In this document: positions 2,568 to 43,717 of the stretch, piece by piece | How the letters are laid out: the number at the start of each line of letters is the position of its first letter | Numbering within the stretch: position 1 is the first letter of the stretch | Origin: Deltaproteobacteria bacterium | GTDB taxonomy: Bacteria; Desulfobacterota; Dissulfuribacteria; Dissulfuribacterales; UBA5754 | DNA: 64,000 nt | NCBI GenBank assembly: GCA_036574075.1 | Contig: JAINCN010000030.1 | Span: forward strand, 18,029 to 82,028 | Reading direction: 5' to 3' | The notes under the pieces: generated by a model | What the model saw: the letters and a program-made list of their open reading frames with translations, nothing else | Databases searched by the model: none | Told to the model about the DNA's origin: nothing | Made by a program: the position numbers and the translations under genes

Positions 2568-3569
2568 TCATTTAGCGCGCGTCAAAATGAAACGGGCAAG
2601 GGTGACGAGTCCTTCCCTGGTCCCGGAGGGGGGGAATGTGTCCACGAGATGTGCGCACGCGTCCTCGATATATGCCTCGGCCCGTGTCAGGGTTTCCTCG
2701 ATCGCCCCGGTTTGGTGCAGGATGCGTTGGGCCCATGAGAGGTCATCATTGGTTATCCTTTCGGAGGAAAGGATCTCCTTGAGCCTTTCCCGGTCGCGGG
2801 TTTCGGCCCTTTCCATGGCGATCGCAAGGGGTAGGGTCGTCTTGCCTTCCGCCATGTCCGTTCCCACTGCCTTTCCGAGTTTTTCCGTCTCCGAGGTGTA
2901 GTCGAGGACGTCGTCAACCATCTGAAAAGCGATCCCGATGAGGCGGCCGAATTCGGTGAGGGCATGGACCTGCCGTGGTCCCGCCTCGGCCAGAAGGGCG
3001 CCTATGGCGCAGGACGCGGAGATGAGCGCCCCGGTCTTTCTGTAAACGATGTCCAGATAGGTCTTTTCGTCGAGTCCGCGTGTTTGTGAGGACAGAAGCT
3101 GGATGATCTCACCTTCGGCCATGAGGGCCACGGTCTCAGCGATGATCCTGGCGATCGGTACGTTTCGGAAACGGGTGGCGATCTCGATGGCCCTGGCATA
3201 AAGGGAGTCCCCGACAAGCACAACGGCCTTGACCCCCCAGAGGGTATGGGCCGCTGGCTTTCCACGCCGAAGGACCCCTCCGTCCACCACGTCATCGTGA
3301 AGGAGGCTCGCTGCGTGAAGGTATTCGGGCACGACCGAGAGTTCGTATGCCGCATCATCCGACCTGCCGCAAAGCCTGGCCGCGCACACGGTGAGAAGGG
3401 GCCGGATGCGTTTTCCTCCGGCGAATATGATGTGGCCGCACACCTTGTCGATAAATGGGTTTTCACATGCGAATCGGTCCTTGAGGATCTGTTCGATTCG
3501 TAGGAGATCGGGCTGGAAGATGTGGAAGATGTCGTTAGTGTTTTTCTTTCCCATAACGAACGGATCCAT
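2568..3569 (-). CDS. polyprenyl diphosphate synthase (IspB-like)
   Basis: Two aspartate-rich motifs, LLHDDVVDGG and QMVDDVLDYT. The ORF extends to 3641, but an internal Met (MDPFVMGKK, 3569) gives the usual N-terminus; start uncertain. Confidence 0.85.
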   Translation of the reverse strand: MDPFVMGKKNTNDIFHIFQPDLLRIEQILKDRFACENPFIDKVCGHIIFAGGKRIRPLLTVCAARLCGRSDDAAYELSVVPEYLHAASLLHDDVVDGGVLRRGKPAAHTLWGVKAVVLVGDSLYARAIEIATRFRNVPIARIIAETVALMAEGEIIQLLSSQTRGLDEKTYLDIVYRKTGALISASCAIGALLAEAGPRQVHALTEFGRLIGIAFQMVDDVLDYTSETEKLGKAVGTDMAEGKTTLPLAIAMERAETRDRERLKEILSSERITNDDLSWAQRILHQTGAIEETLTRAEAYIEDACAHLVDTFPPSGTREGLVTLARFILTRAK

Positions 3570-3689
3570 GACGATCGGGCAGTAAATCAGTATAATGGCT
3601 GTCTGCCTTGCTTCACAAGGCATGGATCCGGGGATAAGCACCCAACCTTTTGATCTCGCTGAATAAGCCGACGGCCCACGGATTCAGGG

Positions 3690-6368
3690 ATGGAAAGGAT
3701 GAAAGCAGTCAACCCGTCCGCTGATGTATCTTCCACCTTCGAGCGGACGACCCCCATGCTCCAGCAATACCGAGAGATCAAGGCGGCACACGAGGACTGT
3801 ATCCTTTTTTTTCGCATGGGCGATTTCTATGAGATGTTTTTCGAGGACGCGGAGATCGCCTCTTCCATCCTCGGTATCGCCCTCACCTCGCGGGACCGTA
3901 ACAAGGAAGACGGTGTCCCCATGTGTGGCGTTCCGGTCCATGCATCAGAGGGGTATCTGGCCCGGCTCGTACAGGCGGGCAAGCGTGTAGCGATCTGCGA
4001 ACAGGTCGAAGATCCCAAAAACGCCAAAGGTCTCGTCCGGCGGGAGGTCGTGCGGGTCGTCACTCCCGGGCTCATCGCCATCGACGGCGGCCTTTCGGCC
4101 AAGAACAATAATTATATCGTTTCCATCGGCCCTTGCCTGGACGGAGGGTTGCGCGGAATTTCCTCACTGGAGCTCTCCACCGGGGAATTCCGGCTCACCG
4201 AGGTGTCTTCGGACGCTGAGGCCGTCTCCGAGGTCTGCCGACTCGATCCGGCGGAGATCCTTCTTCCCGAGGGAGAGAAGGACGGCCATTTTGCAGCCAG
4301 GCTCGCCGGAGCCCTTTCCGGCCCTGCTGTGAGTTTTCGCCCGGACGGATGGTTCCGGCCCGAACGTGGGGCCTCAGACCTCATGAGGCATTTTTCGGTC
4401 CTCACCCTCGACGGGTTCGGACTTTCCGGATTTGCGGCCGGTACAGGCGCGGCAGGCGCCCTTCTCGAGTACGCCCGCGAGACCCAGCATTCGGATCTCT
4501 CCCACATCCGACGCATCCTTCCCTACCGTCTCGGAGATCATCTCATTCTCGACGAGGCCACCCGCAGAAATCTCGAACTCGTGGCCAACAGTCTGGACCA
4601 TGGCCGGGACGGTACCCTCCTTTCCGTCCTTGACAGGACGGTGACGCCCATGGGGGGACGTCTCCTTAGAAACTGGATCCTTTACCCGCTCATAGAGCGG
4701 CATTCCATCGAGGCGCGGCTCTCTGCCGTGGAGGCACTTGTCGCGGCAGCGACTGAGCGGCAGGCCGCAAGGAGGATGCTCAGAAAGATCTCCGACATGG
4801 AGCGGCTCATCGGTCGCGTCACCCTCAAGACCGCTACCCCGAGGGATCTCCTGGCCCTCAAGGAATCCCTCGCCATGGTCCCCGAAATCCGGGACAGCCT
4901 GGAAGGCCCTGCCGGATACTCTGAGCTCATCTCTGGCATTCGGGCAGATCTCGATCCGTGTGTAGAGGTTCGGGACCTCATCGAGGGCGCGATCCGGCCA
5001 GATGCGCCTTCCATCCTCCGGGACGGAGGGGTGATCCGGGAGGGTTTCCATCCGGAGCTCGACGAGATCATCGCCATCCAGCGGGACGGCAGGGCCTATA
5101 TCGCCAGGGTCGAGAACATCGAGAAGGAAAGGACTGGGATCGCATCTCTCAAGGTAGGATTCAACAGGGTTTTCGGCTATTACATCGAGATCTCCAAGGT
5201 CCATGGAGAAAAGGTCCCGGAGTCCTATATCCGAAAGCAGACCCTCGTTTCCGCCGAGCGATACATCACGCCAGAGCTCAAGGAGGTGGAGGCCAGGATC
5301 CTGACCGCTCAGGAAAGGAAGATAGCCCTCGAGCAGGAGATCTTTCGTGACATCGGGGCCCGCATCTGCCGGAACGGAGAAAGGATCCAGACGACGGCCC
5401 GCGCACTTTCCCTTCTCGACTGTCTTGCGTCTCTTGCAGAGGTGGCAGTGGAATATGGCTACAAAAGGCCTGTCATTACCGATGGAGACGGCATACATAT
5501 TCGTCAGGGGCGGCATCCGGTAGTGGAGCGGACGCTCGTCGCTGAGAGATTCGTCCCAAACGACATCACGCTCGACCTCAAGGGCCCGCGCATGATCATC
5601 ATCACCGGACCTAACATGGCCGGCAAATCCACGGTCCTTCGCCAGACCGCCCTCATCGTCCTACTTGCCCAGATGGGGAGCTTCGTTCCCGCGGATGCCG
5701 CCGAGATCGGAATCGTGGACAGGATCTTCACCAGGGTCGGCGCAACGGATTACCTTTCCCGCGGTCAGAGCACCTTTATGGTGGAGATGACGGAGACGGC
5801 CAACATCCTCCACAACGCCACGCCGAAGAGCCTCGTCATCCTGGACGAGATCGGCAGGGGCACGAGCACCTACGACGGCCTGTCCATCGCATGGGCCGTG
5901 GCCGAAGAGCTCCTCCGAAAGGACGGGATTGGTGTCAAGACCCTCTTTGCCACCCATTACCACGAACTGACCGCCCTTGCCGATCGCTACGACGTCATCA
6001 GGAACATGCACATCTCCGTCCAGGAGTGGGAGGGTGGGATCGTTTTTCTTCGGCATCTGCTGGATGGCCCGGCGAGCAGGAGTTACGGCATCCAGGTCGC
6101 GGCCCTTGCCGGGGTGCCGCGGTCTGTCATCGACCGGGCAAAGGAGATACTCGATCTCATTGAGAATGGAGGTGTGGCGGCTGTAGCGGGACGCGCCGCT
6201 CCTTCCAAAAAGGGCAGAAAAAGACCTGTACAGATGACGCTTCCCCTGGAGCCTGTGGACCGTTTCGGCCTCGAAAGCCGGATTTCGAACCTGGACATCG
6301 ACAACCTCACGCCTTTAGATGCCCTTAAAACCCTTGCCGAGCTCAAGGAATTGATAAAGAATGGCTAA
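3690..6368 (+). CDS. mutS: DNA mismatch repair protein MutS
   Basis: 892 aa; TPMLQQYREIK N-terminus, Walker A GPNMAGKSTVLRQ, DEIGRGTSTYDG, THYHELT. Confidence 0.96.
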   Translation: MERMKAVNPSADVSSTFERTTPMLQQYREIKAAHEDCILFFRMGDFYEMFFEDAEIASSILGIALTSRDRNKEDGVPMCGVPVHASEGYLARLVQAGKRVAICEQVEDPKNAKGLVRREVVRVVTPGLIAIDGGLSAKNNNYIVSIGPCLDGGLRGISSLELSTGEFRLTEVSSDAEAVSEVCRLDPAEILLPEGEKDGHFAARLAGALSGPAVSFRPDGWFRPERGASDLMRHFSVLTLDGFGLSGFAAGTGAAGALLEYARETQHSDLSHIRRILPYRLGDHLILDEATRRNLELVANSLDHGRDGTLLSVLDRTVTPMGGRLLRNWILYPLIERHSIEARLSAVEALVAAATERQAARRMLRKISDMERLIGRVTLKTATPRDLLALKESLAMVPEIRDSLEGPAGYSELISGIRADLDPCVEVRDLIEGAIRPDAPSILRDGGVIREGFHPELDEIIAIQRDGRAYIARVENIEKERTGIASLKVGFNRVFGYYIEISKVHGEKVPESYIRKQTLVSAERYITPELKEVEARILTAQERKIALEQEIFRDIGARICRNGERIQTTARALSLLDCLASLAEVAVEYGYKRPVITDGDGIHIRQGRHPVVERTLVAERFVPNDITLDLKGPRMIIITGPNMAGKSTVLRQTALIVLLAQMGSFVPADAAEIGIVDRIFTRVGATDYLSRGQSTFMVEMTETANILHNATPKSLVILDEIGRGTSTYDGLSIAWAVAEELLRKDGIGVKTLFATHYHELTALADRYDVIRNMHISVQEWEGGIVFLRHLLDGPASRSYGIQVAALAGVPRSVIDRAKEILDLIENGGVAAVAGRAAPSKKGRKRPVQMTLPLEPVDRFGLESRISNLDIDNLTPLDALKTLAELKELIKNG

Positions 6369-8312: not shown

Positions 8313-8485
8313 CCTGAATCCGCGAGCCTACGGCCGGGGTATTTGTTCCGTGCGGCAAATAGCCCCGTCCATGGGGGCAGATTTGCTGACGGCGCCCATC
8401 CGTGGGCGCCTCCATGCACAAATATCCCCGCCGTCAGCATATTCTATGAAATCGAAAGGTTGAGTGCATATCTCACAGATTCAGG
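8313..8485 (+). repeat. MITE-like palindromic element, copy B (both termini present)
   Basis: cctgaatccgcgag ... ctcacagattcagg termini; internal blocks as in the other copies. Confidence 0.8.
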
Positions 8486-33921: not shown

Positions 33922-34500
33922 ATGGCTGAAATACGAAGTTCCCTGGATATTGCTCTTGAAAAGGCCGCTCGGCTTGGCTCTGTCGACAAGGAAGAAATGG
34001 CGAGGGAGACACGGGTGGAACACGGTAGACGTCTGGCCGTAACGTTTCTCCAGTCCCGGGATGCCACGATGAGGTCCCTTCTCGAAGGTGTGGATCCCCA
34101 GGGCTTCCAGGATGTCATGACCGGGGTTTTGCAGGTCCTCATGAGGAATATCATCCTCCCCAGGGATGCACAAAGGACGGAGATTGACCGCGCCCTGACC
34201 GGAATCGGCGAGCTCAAGGGAAGCAGCGCTCGGGACATCCTTTCGCAGATCGACCAGCTCATCGATGCCTATATCAAGAACAAAAAACACTACTACGAAC
34301 AGTTGAAGGTCCAGATGGAAGGCAAGCTTGGGGGCCTGCAGGAGGCCATGGCTCAACAATATGGCATACGCGGCATGGCAAGGCTTTCGGCCGAATCCAT
34401 TCCCCAGTTCCAGCAGGAGTGGGCAAAACTCTCATCGGAAATAGACGAGCAGTTTCAGCAGAGGCTCGACTTGTTAAAGGCCAATCTGGAACATTTGTAG
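33922..34500 (+). CDS. hypothetical protein (helical)
   Basis: 192-aa ORF with coding-like composition; no motif I can name. Confidence 0.5.
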   Translation: MAEIRSSLDIALEKAARLGSVDKEEMARETRVEHGRRLAVTFLQSRDATMRSLLEGVDPQGFQDVMTGVLQVLMRNIILPRDAQRTEIDRALTGIGELKGSSARDILSQIDQLIDAYIKNKKHYYEQLKVQMEGKLGGLQEAMAQQYGIRGMARLSAESIPQFQQEWAKLSSEIDEQFQQRLDLLKANLEHL

Positions 34501-34502
34501 GC

Positions 34503-34653
34503 CCTGAATCCGTGAGCCTACGGCCGGAGTATTTGTTTCGTGCGGCAAATAGCCTCCTGTCCATGGGGGCGGATTTGCCGCTCAAGCCTATTTATGGGCG
34601 CCTCCATCCACAAATACCCCGGCCGTAGGCTTATGCTGTGAAATCGAAAGGTA
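34503..34653 (+). repeat. MITE-like element, copy D (right terminus replaced)
   Basis: cctgaatccgtgagcctacggccggagtatttgt...gaaatcgaaaggt, then abruptly continues into the family-2 repeat. Confidence 0.75.
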
Positions 34654-35190
34654 GGGAGGGGGTGCGGGGCAGTGCCTCATCGGCCGGATAACCGCTTTGG
34701 TGATGCAACTGCCTTTTCGGCCATGGACGCGAGGTGCCAAGTGAGGCCCTGCGGCCGCCTGCCCTGGCTTTCTGGATCCGGCCTGATTCAGCACTACCCC
34801 GCACCCCCTCCCTGGATTACATGGGCGTACTTCAAACCTTACACGAGGGTTTGGACGGATGGGTGCACGGCGCAAGTGGAGGCTGGTGGGGCGGGCCGTT
34901 GTGGAGGCGGGCGGATCCAGAAAGCCAGGATAAGCGGGCACCGGGCCTTGCATAGCACCTTGCGTCATCGGAAAAGACAGCCGCTACATCGCCAAAGCGG
35001 TTATCCGACCGCCGGAACAACGGCCCGCCCCACCTGCCCATGAATTTAGGCGGAAAGCGGATCCAGAAAGCCAGGATAAGCGGGCACCAGGCCTTGCATG
35101 GCACCTTGCGTCCTCGGACAAGACCGCCGCTGTATCGCCAAAGCGGTTATCCGACCGCCGGAACAACGGCCCGCCCCACCTGCCCATATT
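34653..35190. repeat. family-2 long hairpin repeats: one inverted unit plus two direct ~131-bp units
   Basis: Unit 1 (34653-34813) is bracketed by the perfect 17-bp inverted repeat agggagggggtgcgggg/ccccgcaccccctccct. Units 2 (34885-35034) and 3 (~35048-35180) share gcggatccagaaagccaggataagcgggcacc...ccaaagcggttatccgaccgccggaacaacggcccgccccacc, and unit 1 is their reverse complement at roughly 70-75% identity. Confidence 0.85.
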
Positions 35191-35299: not shown

Positions 35300-35584
35300 A
35301 TGGAGAACAGGGATCTCTATCTTGCTGCGTACGACATCACGGAGGCAAAGAGGCTCCGCGACGCCCTTAACGTACTAAAAGGCGTCTCCACTGGTGGCCA
35401 GAAGTCCGTATTCGAGTGTTTTCTCAACAACATCGAGAAGAAGGGGCTTCTTTCCCGGGTCGGCAGGATCCTGGATCCGGCTGAGGACCGGTTTCTCCTC
35501 CTTAGGCTCGATCCGCGTGCGCGGGTCCACACCCTCGGGATCGGGGTCGAGCCTTCCGATCCCCCGTTTTTCTATTTCGGGTGA
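35300..35584 (+). CDS. cas2: CRISPR-associated endoribonuclease Cas2 (copy a)
   Basis: 94 aa; MENRDLYLAAYDITEAKRLRDA...VFECFL...RFLLLRL ferredoxin-like Cas2 pattern with the N-terminal Asp; gggagg 6 nt upstream of ATG 35300. Confidence 0.85.
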   Translation: MENRDLYLAAYDITEAKRLRDALNVLKGVSTGGQKSVFECFLNNIEKKGLLSRVGRILDPAEDRFLLLRLDPRARVHTLGIGVEPSDPPFFYFG

Positions 35585-35588
35585 TGCC

Positions 35589-36563
35589 ATGGGAACGCTC
35601 TATCTCGACCGTTCAGGCCTGGAACTCCGGATCGACGGGGACGCCGTGGCCCTTTACACGCGTGGTGAAAGGAGCGGCACGGTCCCGATTGGCCTGCTCG
35701 AAAAGATCGTCATCAAGGGGGAGATTTCCTTAACGAGCAATGTCCTTGGAAGGCTTGCTGATGCCGGGGTATCTGTTCTCATGCTTTCGGCCCGTCACTC
35801 GCGAAGGGTCGCATTCGTGCACGGACGATTCCACAACGACGCCCGTATCCGGCTCGCCCACTACCGGGCCGTCCTTGACGACGAATACGCGCTTGGCTGG
35901 TCCCGCCGTATCGTCCGTGCGAAGATATCAGCCCAGGTCGCCTTTTTGAAAAGGGCCGGAGACGAGAAGCCGGAGGCCAAAAAGGACCTTTTCGGCCCCA
36001 TCGCCGGGCTCAAAAGCTGTGGTGAGGCCCTTTCAAACGCCGTCACCACCGACGGCGTACGAGGACTTGAGGGGGCCTCTGCAAGGCTCTATTTCGCGGG
36101 CCTTTCGCACCTCTTTCCGCCTTCGCTTCAATTCAACGGACGCAACAAGAGACCCCCTCGGGATCCTGTCAATGCAGTCCTTTCCCTCGCTTACACCCTT
36201 GCGCATCACGAGGCCGTGAGGGCCTGCCATCTGGCCGGCCTTGATCCGCTCCTCGGCTTTCTCCACAAGCCGGCCTGGGGCCGGGAATCCCTTGCCTGCG
36301 ATCTCATTGAGCCCTTTCGGCCCAGGCTGGATGCCTGGGTGTGGGGGTTATTCCGCGAAAGGATCCTCAGACCTGAGGATTTCCACCGGGACAAGGGTGC
36401 GGTCCTCCTCGGCAAGGCCGGACGTCACCGTTTCTACGAGGCATACGAGGCAAAGGGCCCAGTCTGGAGCCGGGCCCTCATCAGGCTCGCCCGTGCCCTT
36501 GCCTCCTCCGTGACGAAAAAGACCCCGGATCTCTTTCTTGCGGACGAGGAGGACGACTCATGA
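35589..36563 (+). CDS. cas1: CRISPR-associated endonuclease Cas1 (copy a, catalytic motifs intact)
   Basis: 324 aa; N-terminal beta domain TLYLDRSGLELRIDGDAVAL...; GLEGASARLYF (Glu), LDPLLGFLH (His), SLACDLIEPFRP (Asp/Glu). Confidence 0.9.
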   Translation: MGTLYLDRSGLELRIDGDAVALYTRGERSGTVPIGLLEKIVIKGEISLTSNVLGRLADAGVSVLMLSARHSRRVAFVHGRFHNDARIRLAHYRAVLDDEYALGWSRRIVRAKISAQVAFLKRAGDEKPEAKKDLFGPIAGLKSCGEALSNAVTTDGVRGLEGASARLYFAGLSHLFPPSLQFNGRNKRPPRDPVNAVLSLAYTLAHHEAVRACHLAGLDPLLGFLHKPAWGRESLACDLIEPFRPRLDAWVWGLFRERILRPEDFHRDKGAVLLGKAGRHRFYEAYEAKGPVWSRALIRLARALASSVTKKTPDLFLADEEDDS

Positions 36564-37342
36564 GAAGGCCGCTGTATCTCCTGAGAGGGGAAGGGACAGA
36601 GGTCCGGCTCGATGGACCCTCCCTCCTCGTTTCAGGCACACGCAGGGCGGACGGCCGTTACCCTCTGGCCCAGGTCAGCCGTGTGACCTCCGACAGCGCG
36701 GTCAGGTGGGAAACCGAGGCCATCATTGCATGCCTCGGAAGCCGCATCCCGGTGACGTTCGTCAGCGGCCGGGGCAGAATCATCGGATTCTGCCTGCCGG
36801 TCGGGGAGCTGAAATCCAGCAACGCATCGAAACTTCGTGAGTTTTTCGCCTTTCCGTTCTGGAAGGAGGTCTACGACAATTGGCTCTCAGCTGAGACGAG
36901 AAAGGCCGTTCTCGATCAACTCGATGCATTTCACGTCAGGACCGAGGATCTGAGGCCCATGGCGGCAAGGCGGTTTCTGCTTGACCGTGTAGCTGCAAAC
37001 GTGTCAAGGGCCGAGAGGGACCGGATCATGGACAGATTAAACGGGCTTGCTGGATCCCTCCTCGCAGGGCTCTTCTCCCATGAAAGGCTCCCAACCCGGT
37101 ATCCTGTTACAGGGGCAGGGGTGGTGAACCTGCACGAGGATTTCCTGTCCGTCATTTCCTGGGAGCTTTTGCCGATCGTAATGGAGGTTGCGAGAAGGGG
37201 CTACAGGGATCGCGATCCGAATAGCCTGGCCTTGCTTGTCGGCGCCTTCGAGAAGAGATCCACTGTGATCAAGGATCGGCATGCGCGACTCCTCGAAAGT
37301 CTTCTTCTGAGAATTCATGACGCCTACCTCGTTGGACAATGA
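36560..37342 (+). CDS. divergent Cas1-like protein (copy b, catalytic residues apparently lost)
   Basis: 260 aa; ATGA overlap with cas1a. The N-terminal PLYLLRGEGTEVRLDGPSLLV...IPVTFVSGRGRIIGFCLP parallels the Cas1 beta domain. The aligned GLEG reads GLAG, and no GFLH-type His motif was found. Confidence 0.6.
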   Translation: MRRPLYLLRGEGTEVRLDGPSLLVSGTRRADGRYPLAQVSRVTSDSAVRWETEAIIACLGSRIPVTFVSGRGRIIGFCLPVGELKSSNASKLREFFAFPFWKEVYDNWLSAETRKAVLDQLDAFHVRTEDLRPMAARRFLLDRVAANVSRAERDRIMDRLNGLAGSLLAGLFSHERLPTRYPVTGAGVVNLHEDFLSVISWELLPIVMEVARRGYRDRDPNSLALLVGAFEKRSTVIKDRHARLLESLLLRIHDAYLVGQ

Positions 37343-37345
37343 GTC

Positions 37346-37708
37346 ATGAGCGACCAAGGCAAGCGCCCCTATCTTGTTGCGTACGACATTGCTGATCCGA
37401 AAAGGCTCTGCCTCGTCCACAAGATCCTCACCAGATACGCCGTCCCTGTCCAGTATTCCGTGTTTATCGGCACCTTTACCCCCACGAACCTTGAGGCCCT
37501 CAAAAAGGAGCTTGTGCAGGTCATAGAAAATGACGAGGACGACATAAGAATGTATCCTATCTCACGCAACGCCGATCCCATCACCATCGGCCGGCACTTC
37601 CTGCCGGAGGATGTACTGCTTTTTATCCAGAACAAACGGGCTGATATCACGCCCCTTGTCAGGGGTGGAGTCCATGGGCATGATCTCTGCGACAAGAAGA
37701 AAAAATAG
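37346..37708 (+). CDS. cas2: CRISPR-associated Cas2 (copy b)
   Basis: 120 aa; KRPYLVAYDIADPKRL...VQYSVFIGTF...IRMYPI; 3-nt gap after cas1b. Confidence 0.85.
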   Translation: MSDQGKRPYLVAYDIADPKRLCLVHKILTRYAVPVQYSVFIGTFTPTNLEALKKELVQVIENDEDDIRMYPISRNADPITIGRHFLPEDVLLFIQNKRADITPLVRGGVHGHDLCDKKKK

Positions 37709-37809
37709 GAGGAAAAGTAAGCAAATGGCGAATTGGCTTTTCAAACGTTATCAAAATTGGCAAGGTGGCTTGTATGAGGCTGGAAATATTTCAAAAAAAA
37801 GGAGGAGCT
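37709..37809 (+). promoter_or_regulatory. putative CRISPR leader
   Basis: 101-bp AT-rich stretch between cas2b and the first repeat, with repeated attggc motifs and an A8 run. No promoter hexamers could be assigned confidently. Confidence 0.5.
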
Positions 37810-40800
37810 ATTGATCCGATTGCCCTGATGAAGAAGGGATTAAGACTTCCATGCAGAGATAAATCCGCCTAAATAGCACTGGCATTGATCCGATTGCCCT
37901 GATGAAGAAGGGATTAAGACACGGGAAAAGCCACCAACTTTCCCTGCTGGATCAATTGATCCGATTGCCCTGATGAAGAAGGGATTAAGACTCGTCGGTT
38001 ACGTGGGATATGATCAGTTGGGAGCCCGTCATTGATCCGATTGCCCTGATGAAGAAGGGATTAAGACGAAAAGACATGGCAACAATCACAGTAAGGAAAA
38101 AATTGATCCGATTGCCCTGATGAAGAAGGGATTAAGACCTCCATGCAGAGATAGACCCGCCGAAACAGAAATTGATCCGATTGCCCTGATGAAGAAGGGA
38201 TTAAGACACGTGAGCTGGGCGGAAACCCAGATTTTTCACGATTGATCCGATTGCCCTGATGAAGAAGGGATTAAGACCAGCAGCCGCGCAGCCAGATCGC
38301 GCGGCAGGCATTGATCCGATTGCCCTGATGAAGAAGGGATTAAGACCGTCGTGCCAGACGATGATCCGCGCAAATGAGGAATTGATCCGATTGCCCTGAT
38401 GAAGAAGGGATTAAGACGACAACGCACGTCGCTAATTCGAACACGCGTCGATTGATCCGATTGCCCTGATGAAGAAGGGATTAAGACAGATCAGTTTGTG
38501 CATAATCAGCAAATGTCTCGATTGATCCGATTGCCCTGATGAAGAAGGGATTAAGACCCAAGCCACAACTCTAATTTCGGACTGGGATAGAATTGATCCG
38601 ATTGCCCTGATGAAGAAGGGATTAAGACTTGAGTTTGATTTGTTTTCTTCCGGATCGTAAATTGATCCGATTGCCCTGATGAAGAAGGGATTAAGACAGG
38701 CTGAGGCCACCGATGCGGCAATAAACGCTATTGATCCGATTGCCCTGATGAAGAAGGGATTAAGACCTTCGCCCGTTTTTCATTGTTAACGGCCACGTAC
38801 ATTGATCCGATTGCCCTGATGAAGAAGGGATTAAGACTTATTAGTAGTTAATATAATCATCAATATCATCGATTGATCCGATTGCCCTGATGAAGAAGGG
38901 ATTAAGACTACAACAATCGCCATTTTTTTGCCCTCCTTAATATTGATCCGATTGCCCTGATGAAGAAGGGATTAAGACATTTCCCATTCTGCTTCTTCAT
39001 CCTCATCCTATTGATCCGATTGCCCTGATGAAGAAGGGATTAAGACTTGCCGATTAGGGCAAGTACTTTTTGCTCAGGTGTATTGATCCGATTGCCCTGA
39101 TGAAGAAGGGATTAAGACCGCTTGCGAGCGCTCTTGCCGATTCTCATCTATTAATTGATCCGATTGCCCTGATGAAGAAGGGATTAAGACTGACATTCCT
39201 CCTTCATTTATGTTTAGTGTTTTATTGATCCGATTGCCCTGATGAAGAAGGGATTAAGACCATTGTGCCCCTTGGGTTGGGATGGCGGCGCTATTGATCC
39301 GATTGCCCTGATGAAGAAGGGATTAAGACTTTTCCCTCTGTTGATTGTTAACGGACACGTACTATTGATCCGATTGCCCTGATGAAGAAGGGATTAAGAC
39401 AGATCATGGAGATTTTTTTGAACTTGAAACCCATTGATCCGATTGCCCTGATGAAGAAGGGATTAAGACTCGACGCTGTCCCATATTTTCATTTCCCATA
39501 CTATTGATCCGATTGCCCTGATGAAGAAGGGATTAAGACTTCTGTAGGATAATAACTATCAACAAGATCTTGGTATTGATCCGATTGCCCTGATGAAGAA
39601 GGGATTAAGACTGATTTGCCTTGCAGACCTCAGCGTCTGCAACATTGATCCGATTGCCCTGATGAAGAAGGGATTAAGACCCCTCGTTCTTGCAAAACTT
39701 GATTAATCCCTTGATTGATCCGATTGCCCTGATGAAGAAGGGATTAAGACATCCGGGCCGTCGATGTCCCGGATCCATGCATTGATCCGATTGCCCTGAT
39801 GAAGAAGGGATTAAGACCAGGGCGCTTGAAGATGTTGAGCCTGTCGGCATTGATCCGATTGCCCTGATGAAGAAGGGATTAAGACCGTTGCCTGCGCGCG
39901 GATTTTTAAAGCGCTTGCAAGTGGATTGATCCGATTGCCCTGATGAAGAAGGGATTAAGACCTCTCAAGGGGAGCCATCAAGAAAAGGGCGCCGCCTATA
40001 TTGATCCGATTGCCCTGATGAAGAAGGGATTAAGACGCCTTGTGTTGGGTAAGATTCAAAATTTTCACATTGATCCGATTGCCCTGATGAAGAAGGGATT
40101 AAGACAGAGATTATAGATTTCAGAAATAATTTCACCATCATTGATCCGATTGCCCTGATGAAGAAGGGATTAAGACCCGACCCTTAAGGTCATCATAGGG
40201 CTCGCCCTTGATTGATCCGATTGCCCTGATGAAGAAGGGATTAAGACGAGATCCGGGCCATCAATATCCCGGATCCAGGCCCATTGATCCGATTGCCCTG
40301 ATGAAGAAGGGATTAAGACCGACCTTTTGACTTATATCTCTTGTGAGTGTTCATTGATCCGATTGCCCTGATGAAGAAGGGATTAAGACTTGTGGGCAAT
40401 GTACTTGCCCACAAGGGCCATTACTTTCATTGATCCGATTGCCCTGATGAAGAAGGGATTAAGACACGAGGGGTTACCTTGCTTTCGGGCGTCCACTGCC
40501 ATTGATCCGATTGCCCTGATGAAGAAGGGATTAAGACGCCCCGAGGGTTAAGTTAGCCCTCAGGGCTTGTATCATTGATCCGATTGCCCTGATGAAGAAG
40601 GGATTAAGACCATAATCTTTCCTCCTTTAAATTAAGATTTATCGGCATTGATCCGATTGCCCTGATGAAGAAGGGATTAAGACTAGAAGACCGGAGCAGT
40701 TTCCAGTACATCCACATTGATCCGATTGCCCTGATGAAGAAGGGATTAAGACTTCCATAGATAGACGCCGTACCATCCATAAATATGGATTGATCCGATT

Positions 40801-42237
40801 GCCCTGATGAAGAAGGGATTAAGACACCGGCCTGATCCATGACTTTCTGAAAACTTGTATCTATTGATCCGATTGTCCTGATGAAGAAGGGATTAAGACG
40901 AAGGCGGATAACCCGCCTTTTCTCGTTTTTCGATTGATCCGATTGCCCTGATGAAGAAGGGATTAAGACTTTTTCTTAAGTGTGATTGTTGCCATTTTCT
41001 TCTATTGATCCGATTGCCCTGATGAAGAAGGGATTAAGACCCTATTAAGGCAAGCACTTTTTGCTCCGGCGTTAATTGATCCGATTGCCCTGATGAAGAA
41101 GGGATTAAGACAGCTCGGCGCAGTGTTCTTCGGGGACATCCACGATTGATCCGATTGCCCTGATGAAGAAGGGATTAAGACACCATGACCCCGGAGTGTA
41201 GCATGCCTGCCTTATTGATCCGATTGCCCTGATGAAGAAGGGATTAAGACTCCACGGACTGGGAAAGCTGTCAGCTTCCCATCAATTGATCCGATTGCCC
41301 TGATGAAGAAGGGATTAAGACTTATTGGTCGCGATATATTTCGCGACCAAGGTAAATTGATCCGATTGCCCTGATGAAGAAGGGATTAAGACCTATTTCG
41401 ATGCCACGACCATAAATAGACGACTCCATTGATCCGATTGCCCTGATGAAGAAGGGATTAAGACCCCCGAGCTTGTTAGGCTCGGGGTTGGAGCTCCATT
41501 GATCCGATTGCCCTGATGAAGAAGGGATTAAGACCGAATTTGATTTAGAATTAAGTGCTCTTTTTAATTGATCCGATTGCCCTGATGAAGAAGGGATTAA
41601 GACTTTTGCTCACTGTCCATGTGCGCAACGATTTTTATTGATCCGATTGCCCTGATGAAGAAGGGATTAAGACAGATAAAGACTGTTTCATAATTTCCTC
41701 CTTTATTAGATTGATCCGATTGCCCTGATGAAGAAGGGATTAAGACCGAATTTGATTTAGAATTAAGTGCTCTTTTTAATTGATCCGATTGCCCTGATGA
41801 AGAAGGGATTAAGACAGGCAGAGTCTATAGACTCTGCCTCTCCATGCATTGATCCGATTGCCCTGATGAAGAAGGGATTAAGACGAGCCCCAGTTTCCCA
41901 ATCTACTTCCGGGGCTGGGATTGATCCGATTGCCCTGATGAAGAAGGGATTAAGACGAAAGAGCCATGGGGACCTCCTTTTTTTGTTTATCATTGATCCG
42001 ATTGCCCTGATGAAGAAGGGATTAAGACGCACTAACTTTGAGTACTCTCTCCTTTCCTCCGATTGATCCGATTGCCCTGATGAAGAAGGGATTAAGACAG
42101 AAGTTTTTTCCATGGTTTCCTCCTTTCGTCATTGATTCGATTGCCCTGATGAAGAAGGGATTAAGACAATAAGCGGGACCAATGCCTCGTTCTGCTTAGG
42201 ATTGATCCGATTGCCATGATGAAGACTGTAGGGGCGA
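37810..42237 (+). CRISPR. CRISPR array: 63 repeats of 37 nt, 62 spacers of 30-39 nt
   Basis: Repeat ATTGATCCGATTGCCCTGATGAAGAAGGGATTAAGAC. Variants are R44 (40863, gattgTcctg), R62 (42131, attgatTcg) and the degenerate terminal R63 (42201, attgatccgattgccAtgatgaagaCTGTAGGGGCG). I parsed every unit: spacer lengths sum to 2097 nt. Orientation is set by cas-proximal leader, distal decay and the ATTAAGAC 3' end. Confidence 0.97.
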
Positions 42238-42526: not shown

Positions 42527-42805
42527 TTAGCTGTTCAGCCTTTTAAGCTCACGGTTGAAGTTTTCGTGAGGCCCAACCATCAGAAGTTTGATCGTGCTTT
42601 CGTCGAGTGCTCGATAGGCCAGCAGGCAAAGCAAGCTGCCCATACGAAACTCGTAAACCCGCACACCAGACAGATCGCCAACTTTGGCTTCACCGACTTC
42701 GGTCTGACTGACAAGGGTGCGTACCGCTTCGCCGAACGCCGCTTTCTGCTGCTCGTGGAGCCTTTTGACGGTGCGTTCGAAGGTCGGAGTCACAAAGATG
42801 CGCAT
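42527..42805 (-). CDS. type II toxin-antitoxin system RelE/ParE family toxin
   Basis: 92 aa; MRIFVTPTFERTVKRL...VRVYEFRMGSLLCLLAYRALDESTIKLLMVGPHENF; 1-nt overlap with the upstream antitoxin. Confidence 0.8.
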   Translation of the reverse strand: MRIFVTPTFERTVKRLHEQQKAAFGEAVRTLVSQTEVGEAKVGDLSGVRVYEFRMGSLLCLLAYRALDESTIKLLMVGPHENFNRELKRLNS

Positions 42806-43014
42806 CAGCCGAATTTGTACTCGCCCACGGGCTCTTCTTGATCGGCGATCAGGATCTCGCGGATGACACTGAACGGCAGATCCGGGTTTTCAGTGGTGAT
42901 CTTGCCGATCTGCGACCAATACTCGATTTGCTTTGGCACCGAGCGGTGCTCGATGGCGCCGTAGCGCTTGGCGGTTTCGACCAGGGCTTCTGGCAGCTTG
43001 ACATTGATAGCCAT
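42805..43014 (-). CDS. ParD-like antitoxin
   Basis: 69 aa from ATG 43014 (GGAGG upstream): MAINVKLPEALVETAKRYGAIEHRSVPKQIEYWSQIGKITTENPDLPF. Confidence 0.7.
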   Translation of the reverse strand: MAINVKLPEALVETAKRYGAIEHRSVPKQIEYWSQIGKITTENPDLPFSVIREILIADQEEPVGEYKFG

Positions 43015-43067
43015 GACTAACCTCCATGAATGGGCGCATTCTCGCTCACCATGGTCCAAAAAGGAAC

Positions 43068-43245
43068 CCGTGAATCCGTGAGATATGCACTCAACCTTTC
43101 GATTTCACAACATAAGCCTACGGGCCGGGGTATTTGTGGATGGAGGCGCCCACGGACGGGTCTCGAACGGCAAATCTGCCCCCATGGATGGGGGCTATTT
43201 GCCGCACGAAACAAATACCCCGGCCCGTAGGCTCACGGATTCAGG
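43068..43245 (-). repeat. MITE-like element, copy E (reverse orientation, full length)
   Basis: ccgtgaatccgtgagatatgcactcaacctttcgatttcac...ggcaaatctgcccccatgg...ccgtaggctcacggattcagg. Confidence 0.8.
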
Positions 43246-43717
43246 GGATATATATAGGCTTTTCCCCGCGCTTTTCAGGGGAAATGGACTCCCATCGCTT
43301 TCTGATCTGCTCCTTACGCTCGGGCGGAAGTTTCCTGAACCACTCGAATCTCCTACGGATGCGTTCCCGCTTCTCAGGCGGGAGCTCCCTGAATTTTTTG
43401 AACCTTTTTCTTAATAACTCGCGTTTTTCCGGTGGGAGATCCTTCCATCGGCTGAACCTCTCCAGCGCGATTTCGCGTTCCTCCGGGGACATATTCATCC
43501 ACCTGTCTGCTCCACGTCTCAGGCGGTCCTTCTTTTCCGGGGACAGATCCGCCCAGCGCCCGGCAAAGGGTTTGAGGACCTCCTGTTCCTCCCTGGTAAG
43601 TCCATCCCAGGGCAGATCCTCCTTTCCGGAGGCGGATGAAAGGGAAGGGAGCGTCGTCAGAACTCCGATAGATGCAAGGATGACGATCCAGTATCTGCAG
43701 TGAAGCCTCCAGTTCAT
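43241..43717 (-). CDS. DUF3106 domain-containing protein
   Basis: 158 aa; signal peptide followed by reiterated W..L(S/P)PE(K/E)R motifs (RWADLSPEKKDRL, RWMNMSPEEREIA, RWKDLPPEKRELL, KFRELPPEKRERI, WFRKLPPERKEQI). Confidence 0.7.
   Translation of the reverse strand: MNWRLHCRYWIVILASIGVLTTLPSLSSASGKEDLPWDGLTREEQEVLKPFAGRWADLSPEKKDRLRRGADRWMNMSPEEREIALERFSRWKDLPPEKRELLRKRFKKFRELPPEKRERIRRRFEWFRKLPPERKEQIRKRWESISPEKRGEKPIYIP

Follow-up and report, generated by a model that had tools for sequence, protein, structure and literature searches.

Canonical Cas1, as found in Escherichia coli type I-E, Streptococcus thermophilus type II-A, type I-C, and other systems, is a homodimer whose chains share a two-domain fold and are encoded beside cas2 and a CRISPR array. 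To our knowledge, all structurally characterized Cas1-Cas2 integrases use identical Cas1 chains in two roles. The solved integrases have the composition (Cas1)2-(Cas2)2-(Cas1)2, in which the inner Cas1 is non-catalytic and touches Cas2 and the outer Cas1 catalyzes integration; each dimer of the canonical complex already has one catalytic and one non-catalytic protomer (10.1101/2025.06.12.659244). Here, we analyzed a 64,000-nucleotide stretch of a Deltaproteobacteria bacterium genome (assembly GCA_036574075.1, contig JAINCN010000030.1, positions 18,029 to 82,028; hereafter the window), which encodes two adjacent Cas1 proteins. The first, Cas1a, is a canonical integrase; the second, Cas1b, is diverged, and the pair lies between two different cas2 genes (cas2a and cas2b) upstream of a CRISPR array. 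Like canonical cas1, cas1b is thus encoded with cas2 beside an array. An original prediction, made by eye from the DNA sequence, held that Cas1b keeps the signature of the Cas1 fold, appears to have lost the catalytic Glu and His, and is retained for a structural or regulatory role. Our analysis upholds the fold and the loss, and we propose with moderate confidence a hetero-oligomeric integrase in which Cas1a is paired with Cas1b, a dedicated non-catalytic protomer, and the two act with a Cas2a/Cas2b pair.

To determine how closely Cas1b resembles Cas1, we compared it with sequence profiles and solved structures. The Pfam model Cas_Cas1 matches only residues 8 to 83 of Cas1b (expect value [E], 6.3e-6; score, 26 bits; cutoff, 22.3), and NCBIfam Cas1 models fall far short of their cutoffs (18.2 versus 71.7 bits). 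Direct comparison of Cas1b with Cas1a by BLASTP is marginal (21% identity over 67 aa, E 0.05); therefore, the N-terminal correspondence between the two proteins that had been proposed by eye is significant only with profiles and structure. With these it is real, and in the register first proposed: the Cas1b family profile aligns to the Cas1a family profile over residues 1 to 104 with 97.6% probability (hhalign), and profile matches of Cas1b to the N-terminal domains of Cas1 structures in the Protein Data Bank (PDB) reach E 5e-9. Thus, an N-terminal beta-sandwich Cas1 domain is recognizable by sequence. The C-terminal ~170 residues gave no alignment to the Cas1a family by default profile-profile comparison. 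An initial AlphaFold2 run on a 4-sequence alignment was unusable (predicted local distance difference test [pLDDT] score, 51.6) and was replaced by a run on 137 sequences, which gave a pLDDT of 96.1 and a predicted template modeling score (pTM) of 0.92. When this model was searched against the PDB with Foldseek, all of the top 50 matches were Cas1 or casposase structures, and alignments to the best of these spanned nearly the full length; the template modeling (TM) score against Cas1 from T. maritima (PDB code 4xtk) was 0.74 to 0.77. Because this confident model matches solved Cas1 structures over nearly its whole length, both domains of Cas1b, including the C-terminal alpha-helical one, have the Cas1 fold. 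Cas1b is, as originally noted, 64 aa shorter than Cas1a (260 versus 324 aa).

We then mapped the catalytic positions. Over their entire lengths, Cas1a and the solved type I-C Cas1 (PDB code 8d3l) align; residues E161, H226, D238, and E241 of Cas1a are invariant in its family and in all 52 loci carrying both genes, the set to which the residue counts below refer. Their equivalents in Cas1b were located by two independent profile alignments, one of the Cas1b-family hidden Markov model (HMM) with 8d3l and the other a forced hhalign comparison of the C-terminal half with that of the Cas1a family, in conjunction with matching secondary structure. The two alignments concur on the register for residues 150 to 197. 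In this register, the Cas1b helix at 150 to 174 corresponds to the Cas1 helix following RRPPRDPVN, such that residues 150 to 176 lie opposite RDPVNAVLSLAYTLAHHEAVRACHLAG of Cas1a and not GLEGASARLYF; the beta-hairpin at 180 to 190 corresponds to the GFLH...SL hairpin, with residues 176 to 186 (RLPTRYPVTGA) opposite GLDPLLGFLH and G185 at the position of H226; and residues 190 to 197 (NLHEDFLS) lie opposite SLACDLIE, which places D194 at D238 and S197 at E241. E161 maps to R132/P133, at the N terminus of helix 133 to 144, or to a gap; D130, the sole acidic residue in the vicinity, lacks conservation. The by-eye alignment had therefore reached the correct conclusion about the Glu and His in the wrong register, since it had set GLEGASARLYFAGL against GLAGSLLAGLF (reading the Glu as Ala), LDPLLGFLH against YRDRDPNSLALL, and SLACDLIEPFRP against ALLVGAFEKRS.

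Conservation across the family gives the same picture at each of these columns. Position 132 is mixed (11 R, 11 D, 7 S, and 6 P), positions 183 to 186 are variable with almost no His, and position 197 is again mixed (11 R, 10 E, 5 G, 5 D, 5 A, and 4 S). Only D194, the equivalent of D238, survives (38 D and 6 E). Even a loose combination of E/D, H, and E/D occurs in just 1 of the 52 Cas1b sequences, and His is the commonest residue in no column of the 137-sequence family alignment. Thus, no conserved set of metal-binding residues (Glu, His, and Asp/Glu) is found at the active site. As judged from these alignments, Cas1b is a pseudo-enzyme paralog of Cas1 that has lost the catalytic Glu/His/Glu, and we count this loss as established. 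Because the catalytic triad was sought and is absent, Cas1b is not a member of the Cas1 integrases, though it belongs to the superfamily by fold. For the same reason, the public name of the identical protein from a Deltaproteobacteria metagenome-assembled genome (MAG; NCBI accession MEF3168708.1), "CRISPR-associated endonuclease Cas1," is probably misleading as a statement of activity.

These columns also bear on the idea that Cas1b is still an enzyme, either through a relocated or reduced site (for example, D194 with E231) or through a composite site formed in trans with Cas1a. D194 is Asp or Glu in 44 of the 52 sequences and E231 is Glu in 43, and the endonuclease name, an automatic label from the NCBI Prokaryotic Genome Annotation Pipeline (PGAP), points the same way. 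However, His is conserved nowhere in the family, Arg, Ser, Pro, and Gly predominate in the columns equivalent to the catalytic Glu and to the second acidic residue, the loose triad is confined to a single sequence, and E231 aligns with a conserved but non-catalytic Glu of Cas1a (the YE motif). We therefore regard residual catalysis as very improbable.

If Cas1b is not catalytic, it might simply be a decaying, functionless duplicate that is kept only by its position in the operon. Lost catalytic residues, faster evolution than cas1a, and a C-terminal domain no longer recognized by sequence profiles would all fit such decay. To assess this, we examined the size of the family and the selection acting on it. 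A word-indexed search with Cas1b found only three homologs; an exhaustive HMMER search of 1.84 billion cluster representatives (50% identity) yielded 654 at E ≤ 1e-3, of which 393 reached E ≤ 1e-10. Nearly all of the top 150 matches are 245 to 285 aa long, and most are matched over most of their length. The ratio of nonsynonymous to synonymous substitution rates (dN/dS) of cas1b, measured against two close relatives (91% and 80% identity), is 0.25 to 0.29, so cas1b is clearly under purifying selection; the same comparison gave 0.11 to 0.16 for cas1a, 0.03 to 0.10 for cas2a, and 0.17 to 0.22 for cas2b. The pseudogene explanation is effectively excluded by these data: dN/dS is well under 1, open reading frames (ORFs) are intact and of constant length (about 250 to 270 aa) in at least 393 clusters, and the family alignment yields a highly confident fold prediction. 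In addition, cas1b has been kept across Gamma-, Beta-, Alpha-, and Deltaproteobacteria, Acidobacteriota, and Nitrospirota, and Cas1b co-diverges with Cas1a (see below). A chance ORF was likewise rejected as an explanation.

The distribution of constraint along the two proteins is informative about what has been retained. Across 1,326 locus pairs, the mean pairwise identity of Cas1a is 50% overall, 46% in the N-terminal domain, and 51% in the C-terminal domain; the corresponding values for Cas1b are 25%, 34%, and 21%. Conservation is thus highest in the catalytic domain for Cas1a and lowest there for Cas1b, as expected if Cas1b keeps dimerization and scaffold functions and not catalysis. The N-terminal domain of Cas1 is the part that makes the Cas1 dimer. 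The divergence of Cas1a and Cas1b is correlated across loci (Mantel r, 0.74; 0 of 2,000 permutations as high). Furthermore, the two generic Cas1 profiles that match the N-terminal domain of Cas1b best, PDLC01608 and PDLC01248, are likewise the top two for Cas1a, which is consistent with an origin of Cas1b by duplication within the Cas1a lineage. Most likely, Cas1b arose by tandem duplication of the neighboring cas1a lineage.

To characterize the genomic context of cas1b elsewhere, we surveyed loci through the Cas1a family, taking one genome per species (80 loci among at least 556 matches). In 53 of the 80 genome loci, the ORF directly after Cas1a on the same strand is a Cas1b, although one of these (L065) is a weak match (28 bits); in every locus that has Cas1b, metagenome loci included, it is immediately downstream of Cas1a. 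In the window, the cas1b ATG overlaps the cas1a stop codon (ATGA), and this 4-nt overlap recurs in at least 16 loci. Other spacing estimates were noisy because starts were guessed (in L003, 108 nt versus 18 nt from called genes), and only the ATGA count was used. Hosts include Ectothiorhodospira, Rhodoferax, Sphaerotilus, and Thauera, as well as MAGs of Chromatiaceae, Acidobacteriota, Nitrospirota, and Deltaproteobacteria. A small outlying group carries much weaker Cas1b-like ORFs after Cas1a (L065, 4380 to 5207; L063, 3121 to 3993; L070, 2624 to 3367), which score 28 to 98 bits versus 120 to 290 bits elsewhere and may represent a family branch that has diverged further or is decaying.

The neighbors of Cas1b loci are mostly type III (cmr/csm) genes. 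A locus with a 36%-identical Cas1b homolog has the same cas2-cas1-cas1b-cas2 order adjoining csm (type III-A-like) genes, and the locus of a Cas1a homolog from Pelomicrobium methylotrophicum (L003) has the same four-gene order adjoining a cmr (III-B) operon. Of the 26 Cas1b-positive loci whose upstream flank extends 8 kb or more, 16 have Cas10 in that flank, and several more carry Cmr4-6, Cas6, or CARF-type genes. In a few Cas1b-positive loci, the window included, the adaptation module and its array stand alone; a search of the 64-kb window with type III seed proteins from related loci found no effector genes. As a separate observation, the cmr operon of L003, which precedes the four-gene adaptation module, is interleaved with two toxin-antitoxin pairs of the PIN/antitoxin type on the opposite strand (3330 to 4021 and 5460 to 6097).

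In nearly all loci, including the 27 that lack Cas1b, cas1 lies between two different Cas2 genes, and the upstream and downstream Cas2 sort consistently into cas2a-like and cas2b-like groups. In a neighbor-joining tree of Cas1a, the presence of Cas1b is strongly clustered (5 parsimony changes over 85 tips), with one large clade almost entirely Cas1b positive. The loci of its sister clade (L041-L086), which mostly adjoin type III genes, come for example from Testudinibacter (L049), Aggregatibacter segnis (L053), and Nitrosomonas halophila (L071). This clade combines two Cas2s with a single cas1; the dual-Cas2 arrangement therefore appears to be older or wider than Cas1b.

Several of these observations weigh against a dedicated non-catalytic protomer. 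The whole sister clade has only cas2a-cas1-cas2b, and two loci inside the Cas1b-bearing clade (L041 and L078) have apparently lost Cas1b; therefore, the Cas1 of this lineage can presumably homodimerize, and Cas1b is not universally required. The dN/dS of cas1b is about twice that of cas1a, indicating more relaxed constraint. The catalytic mapping has its own soft spots: the counterpart of the first catalytic Glu is placed with an uncertainty of one to three positions, and the forced C-terminal hhalign is weak on its own (E 0.0073; probability, 5%). Finally, D194 and E231 are fairly conserved as acidic residues, which leaves a small chance of a metal site that is residual or altered.

The absence of Cas1b from the sister clade and from two loci of its own clade, all of which keep cas2a-cas1-cas2b, suggests an add-on rather than a core component, and it argues for a rival explanation in which Cas1b is an accessory or regulatory factor and does not replace the non-catalytic protomer. 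Such a factor might have the leader-repeat junction, prespacers, or a host factor as its binding partner, or it might titrate Cas1a or Cas2 to limit or time adaptation in a dominant-negative-like manner. Csn2, Cas4, and IHF are accessory adaptation factors to which Cas1b would be analogous in role, not in ancestry. The strong divergence and faster evolution of the C-terminal domain, which are common in specificity or regulatory modules, and the basic character that Cas1b retains (median net charge, +5) also agree with this explanation. Nevertheless, the best-conserved part of Cas1b is the dimer-making N-terminal domain, and a stoichiometric partner accounts better than a regulator for its strict adjacency to Cas1a, frequent translational coupling, and tight co-divergence. 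We consider an accessory role plausible but less likely. The original suggestion that an inactivated Cas1 paralog is kept for a structural or regulatory role is supported in general terms, and our choice between those roles is inferential. Neither of the two outcomes named at the start as disproof was seen, namely active-site Glu/His/Asp residues in a structural alignment or decay like that of a pseudogene.

In the arrangement that we favor, that of a dedicated non-catalytic protomer, each of the two protomer roles of the Cas1 dimer would have its own gene. The active site would come from Cas1a. Cas1b, which has kept the N-terminal beta domain and two-domain architecture and has lost the metal-binding Glu/His/Glu, would permanently occupy the non-catalytic position, where it would hold the dimer together and contact Cas2 and DNA. 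Its physical pairing with a catalytic Cas1 and its contact with Cas2 are predicted from the conservation of the N-terminal domain, co-divergence, and synteny, and we infer its position in the complex and its stoichiometry on like grounds. Cas2a and Cas2b, as two distinct paralogs, would probably form the central dimer, and the resulting hetero-oligomeric integrase would feed spacers into the adjacent, mostly type III-associated, array.

Type III systems are PAM (protospacer-adjacent motif)-less and target transcripts. An extended version of the model, which we find doubtful, is that the module is a fully asymmetric integrase in which Cas1a/Cas1b heterodimers sit on a Cas2a/Cas2b heterodimer, the two ends are non-equivalent, and this polarity, rather than a PAM, sets the orientation or choice of spacers for type III systems. 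If so, nature would have subfunctionalized a recombinase dimer into an enzyme and a pseudo-enzyme. More generally, if a widespread lineage has hard-wired the two Cas1 roles into two genes, together with two Cas2 genes, it would constitute a natural dissection of the integrase; the split protomers would reveal the surfaces needed for the non-catalytic role, and the module would provide a handle on how PAM-less type III systems choose and orient spacers. There is also a practical consequence, since the endonuclease label on Cas1b-type proteins inflates the cas1 counts that are used as markers of adaptation competence.

The positions of the module and array in the window are listed in Table 1. 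The four genes form a compact block in the order cas2a-cas1a-cas1b-cas2b, and the array begins ~100 nt downstream. The close homologs of Cas2a are, like it, 94 aa long. Repeats are near perfect, the last has 1 mismatch, and a decayed partial repeat follows it at ~42201 to 42227; because the degenerate repeats sit at this far end, the leader was placed beside cas2b. We count the long array of 62 near-perfect repeats as a sign that the module is used. Within it, spacer 1 (37847 to 37883) and spacer 5 (~38139 to 38170) start alike (TTCCATGCAGAGATAAATCCGCC... and CTCCATGCAGAGATAGACCCGCC...) and are versions of one sequence, and one further spacer is present twice in identical form. These recurrences suggest that one protospacer site was sampled repeatedly in related targets and that the module was recently active.

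Table 1. Positions of the adaptation genes and CRISPR array in the window.
Feature	Position	Strand	Description
cas2a, upstream Cas2 paralog	35300..35584	+	94 aa from an internal ATG (mechanical ORF start, 35264); Pfam CRISPR_Cas2, E 7.9e-11
cas1a, canonical Cas1 integrase	35589..36563	+	324 aa; active site intact; Pfam Cas_Cas1 over full length, E 1.4e-75
cas1b, diverged second Cas1	36560..37342	+	260 aa; full Cas1 fold, catalytic triad lost
cas2b, downstream Cas2 paralog	37346..37708	+	120 aa; Pfam CRISPR_Cas2, E 1.2e-18
Putative CRISPR leader	37709..37809	+	cas2b to first repeat; assigned by position only
CRISPR array	37810..42167	+	62 copies of 37-nt repeat ATTGATCCGATTGCCCTGATGAAGAAGGGATTAAGAC; 61 spacers of 30-39 nt

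The operon and array are flanked by housekeeping genes and a ParE/ParD toxin-antitoxin pair. The latter, directly after the array on the reverse strand (42527 to 43059), comprises a ParE-like toxin (PF15781, E 1.5e-27) and a ParD-like antitoxin (PF11903, E 2.8e-13). An inverted pair of ~160-nt elements (34493 to 34652 and 43094 to 43255; segments 87 to 100% complementary, ~8.4 to 8.7 kb apart) brackets the entire cas2a-cas1a-cas1b-cas2b-CRISPR-ParDE block, so that the toxin-antitoxin pair falls within the bounded segment. The 30-nt core of this element is also found at 8403, 57709, and 57888; the element is therefore a dispersed repeat resembling repetitive extragenic palindromic (REP) sequences or miniature inverted-repeat transposable elements (MITEs). 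Three copies of a second element of ~130 to 146 nt lie just upstream of cas2a (34654 to 34783, 34911 to 35041, and 35057 to 35187), of which one is inverted and the other two are direct copies (identity, 95%; spacing, 146 nt); candidate roles are those of a promoter, regulatory DNA, or a repeat element. The repeat elements are immediately preceded by a 192-aa ORF (33922 to 34500, forward strand) for which Pfam gives no match at E ≤ 1e-3.

Lastly, we compared Cas1b and its module with what is already catalogued. We found no natural inactive, second, or diverged Cas1 in either the 2025 classification paper and its supplements or the 2011 Cas unification paper. In the literature that was searched, which lay mostly outside subscription journals and is thus weak evidence on this point, we found no description of active-site loss, the four-gene architecture, or the function of a second Cas1. 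The family itself, however, has been catalogued. The best match of Cas1b in PADLOC-DB is PDLC01185, "Cas1, diverged variant, second in the loci" (E 7.7e-17), even though Cas1b aligns to only the first 113 of its 246 positions, and all 137 of the 137 sampled Cas1b family members match this model (best, 4.3e-43). Its length fits the size of the Cas1b family, and its name describes the gene position seen here, since a second cas1 follows the canonical cas1 in the window and in all Cas1b-positive loci examined. As all sampled family members match PDLC01185, its curators had already noticed and modeled the family, to which the window gene adds a new member. The label is silent on active-site loss, the flanking Cas2 pair, the type III association, and function.

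Casposases and Cas1-solo proteins share the Cas1 fold, and a casposase (PDB code 6opm) is among the structural matches of Cas1b. Unlike Cas1b, casposases keep the active site and are not CRISPR linked; we rejected this identity for Cas1b, which is always found inside a cas operon and is catalytically degenerate. The closest parallel for the Cas2 pair is the type III-D RT-Cas1 (reverse transcriptase-Cas1) module of V. vulnificus, which likewise has two different Cas2 genes in one type III adaptation operon and in which both Cas2A and Cas2B are required for acquisition, suggesting a Cas2A/Cas2B heterodimer (PMC6821258). The likeness is one of arrangement: the V. vulnificus module has an RT-Cas1 fusion and no second Cas1, and its order is RT-cas1, cas2A, cas2B as opposed to cas2a-cas1a-cas1b-cas2b here. 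In canonical integrases, both protomers of the Cas1 dimer are one polypeptide with an intact active site, whereas in the module described here the second protomer would be a separate, shorter protein that lacks the Glu/His/Glu.

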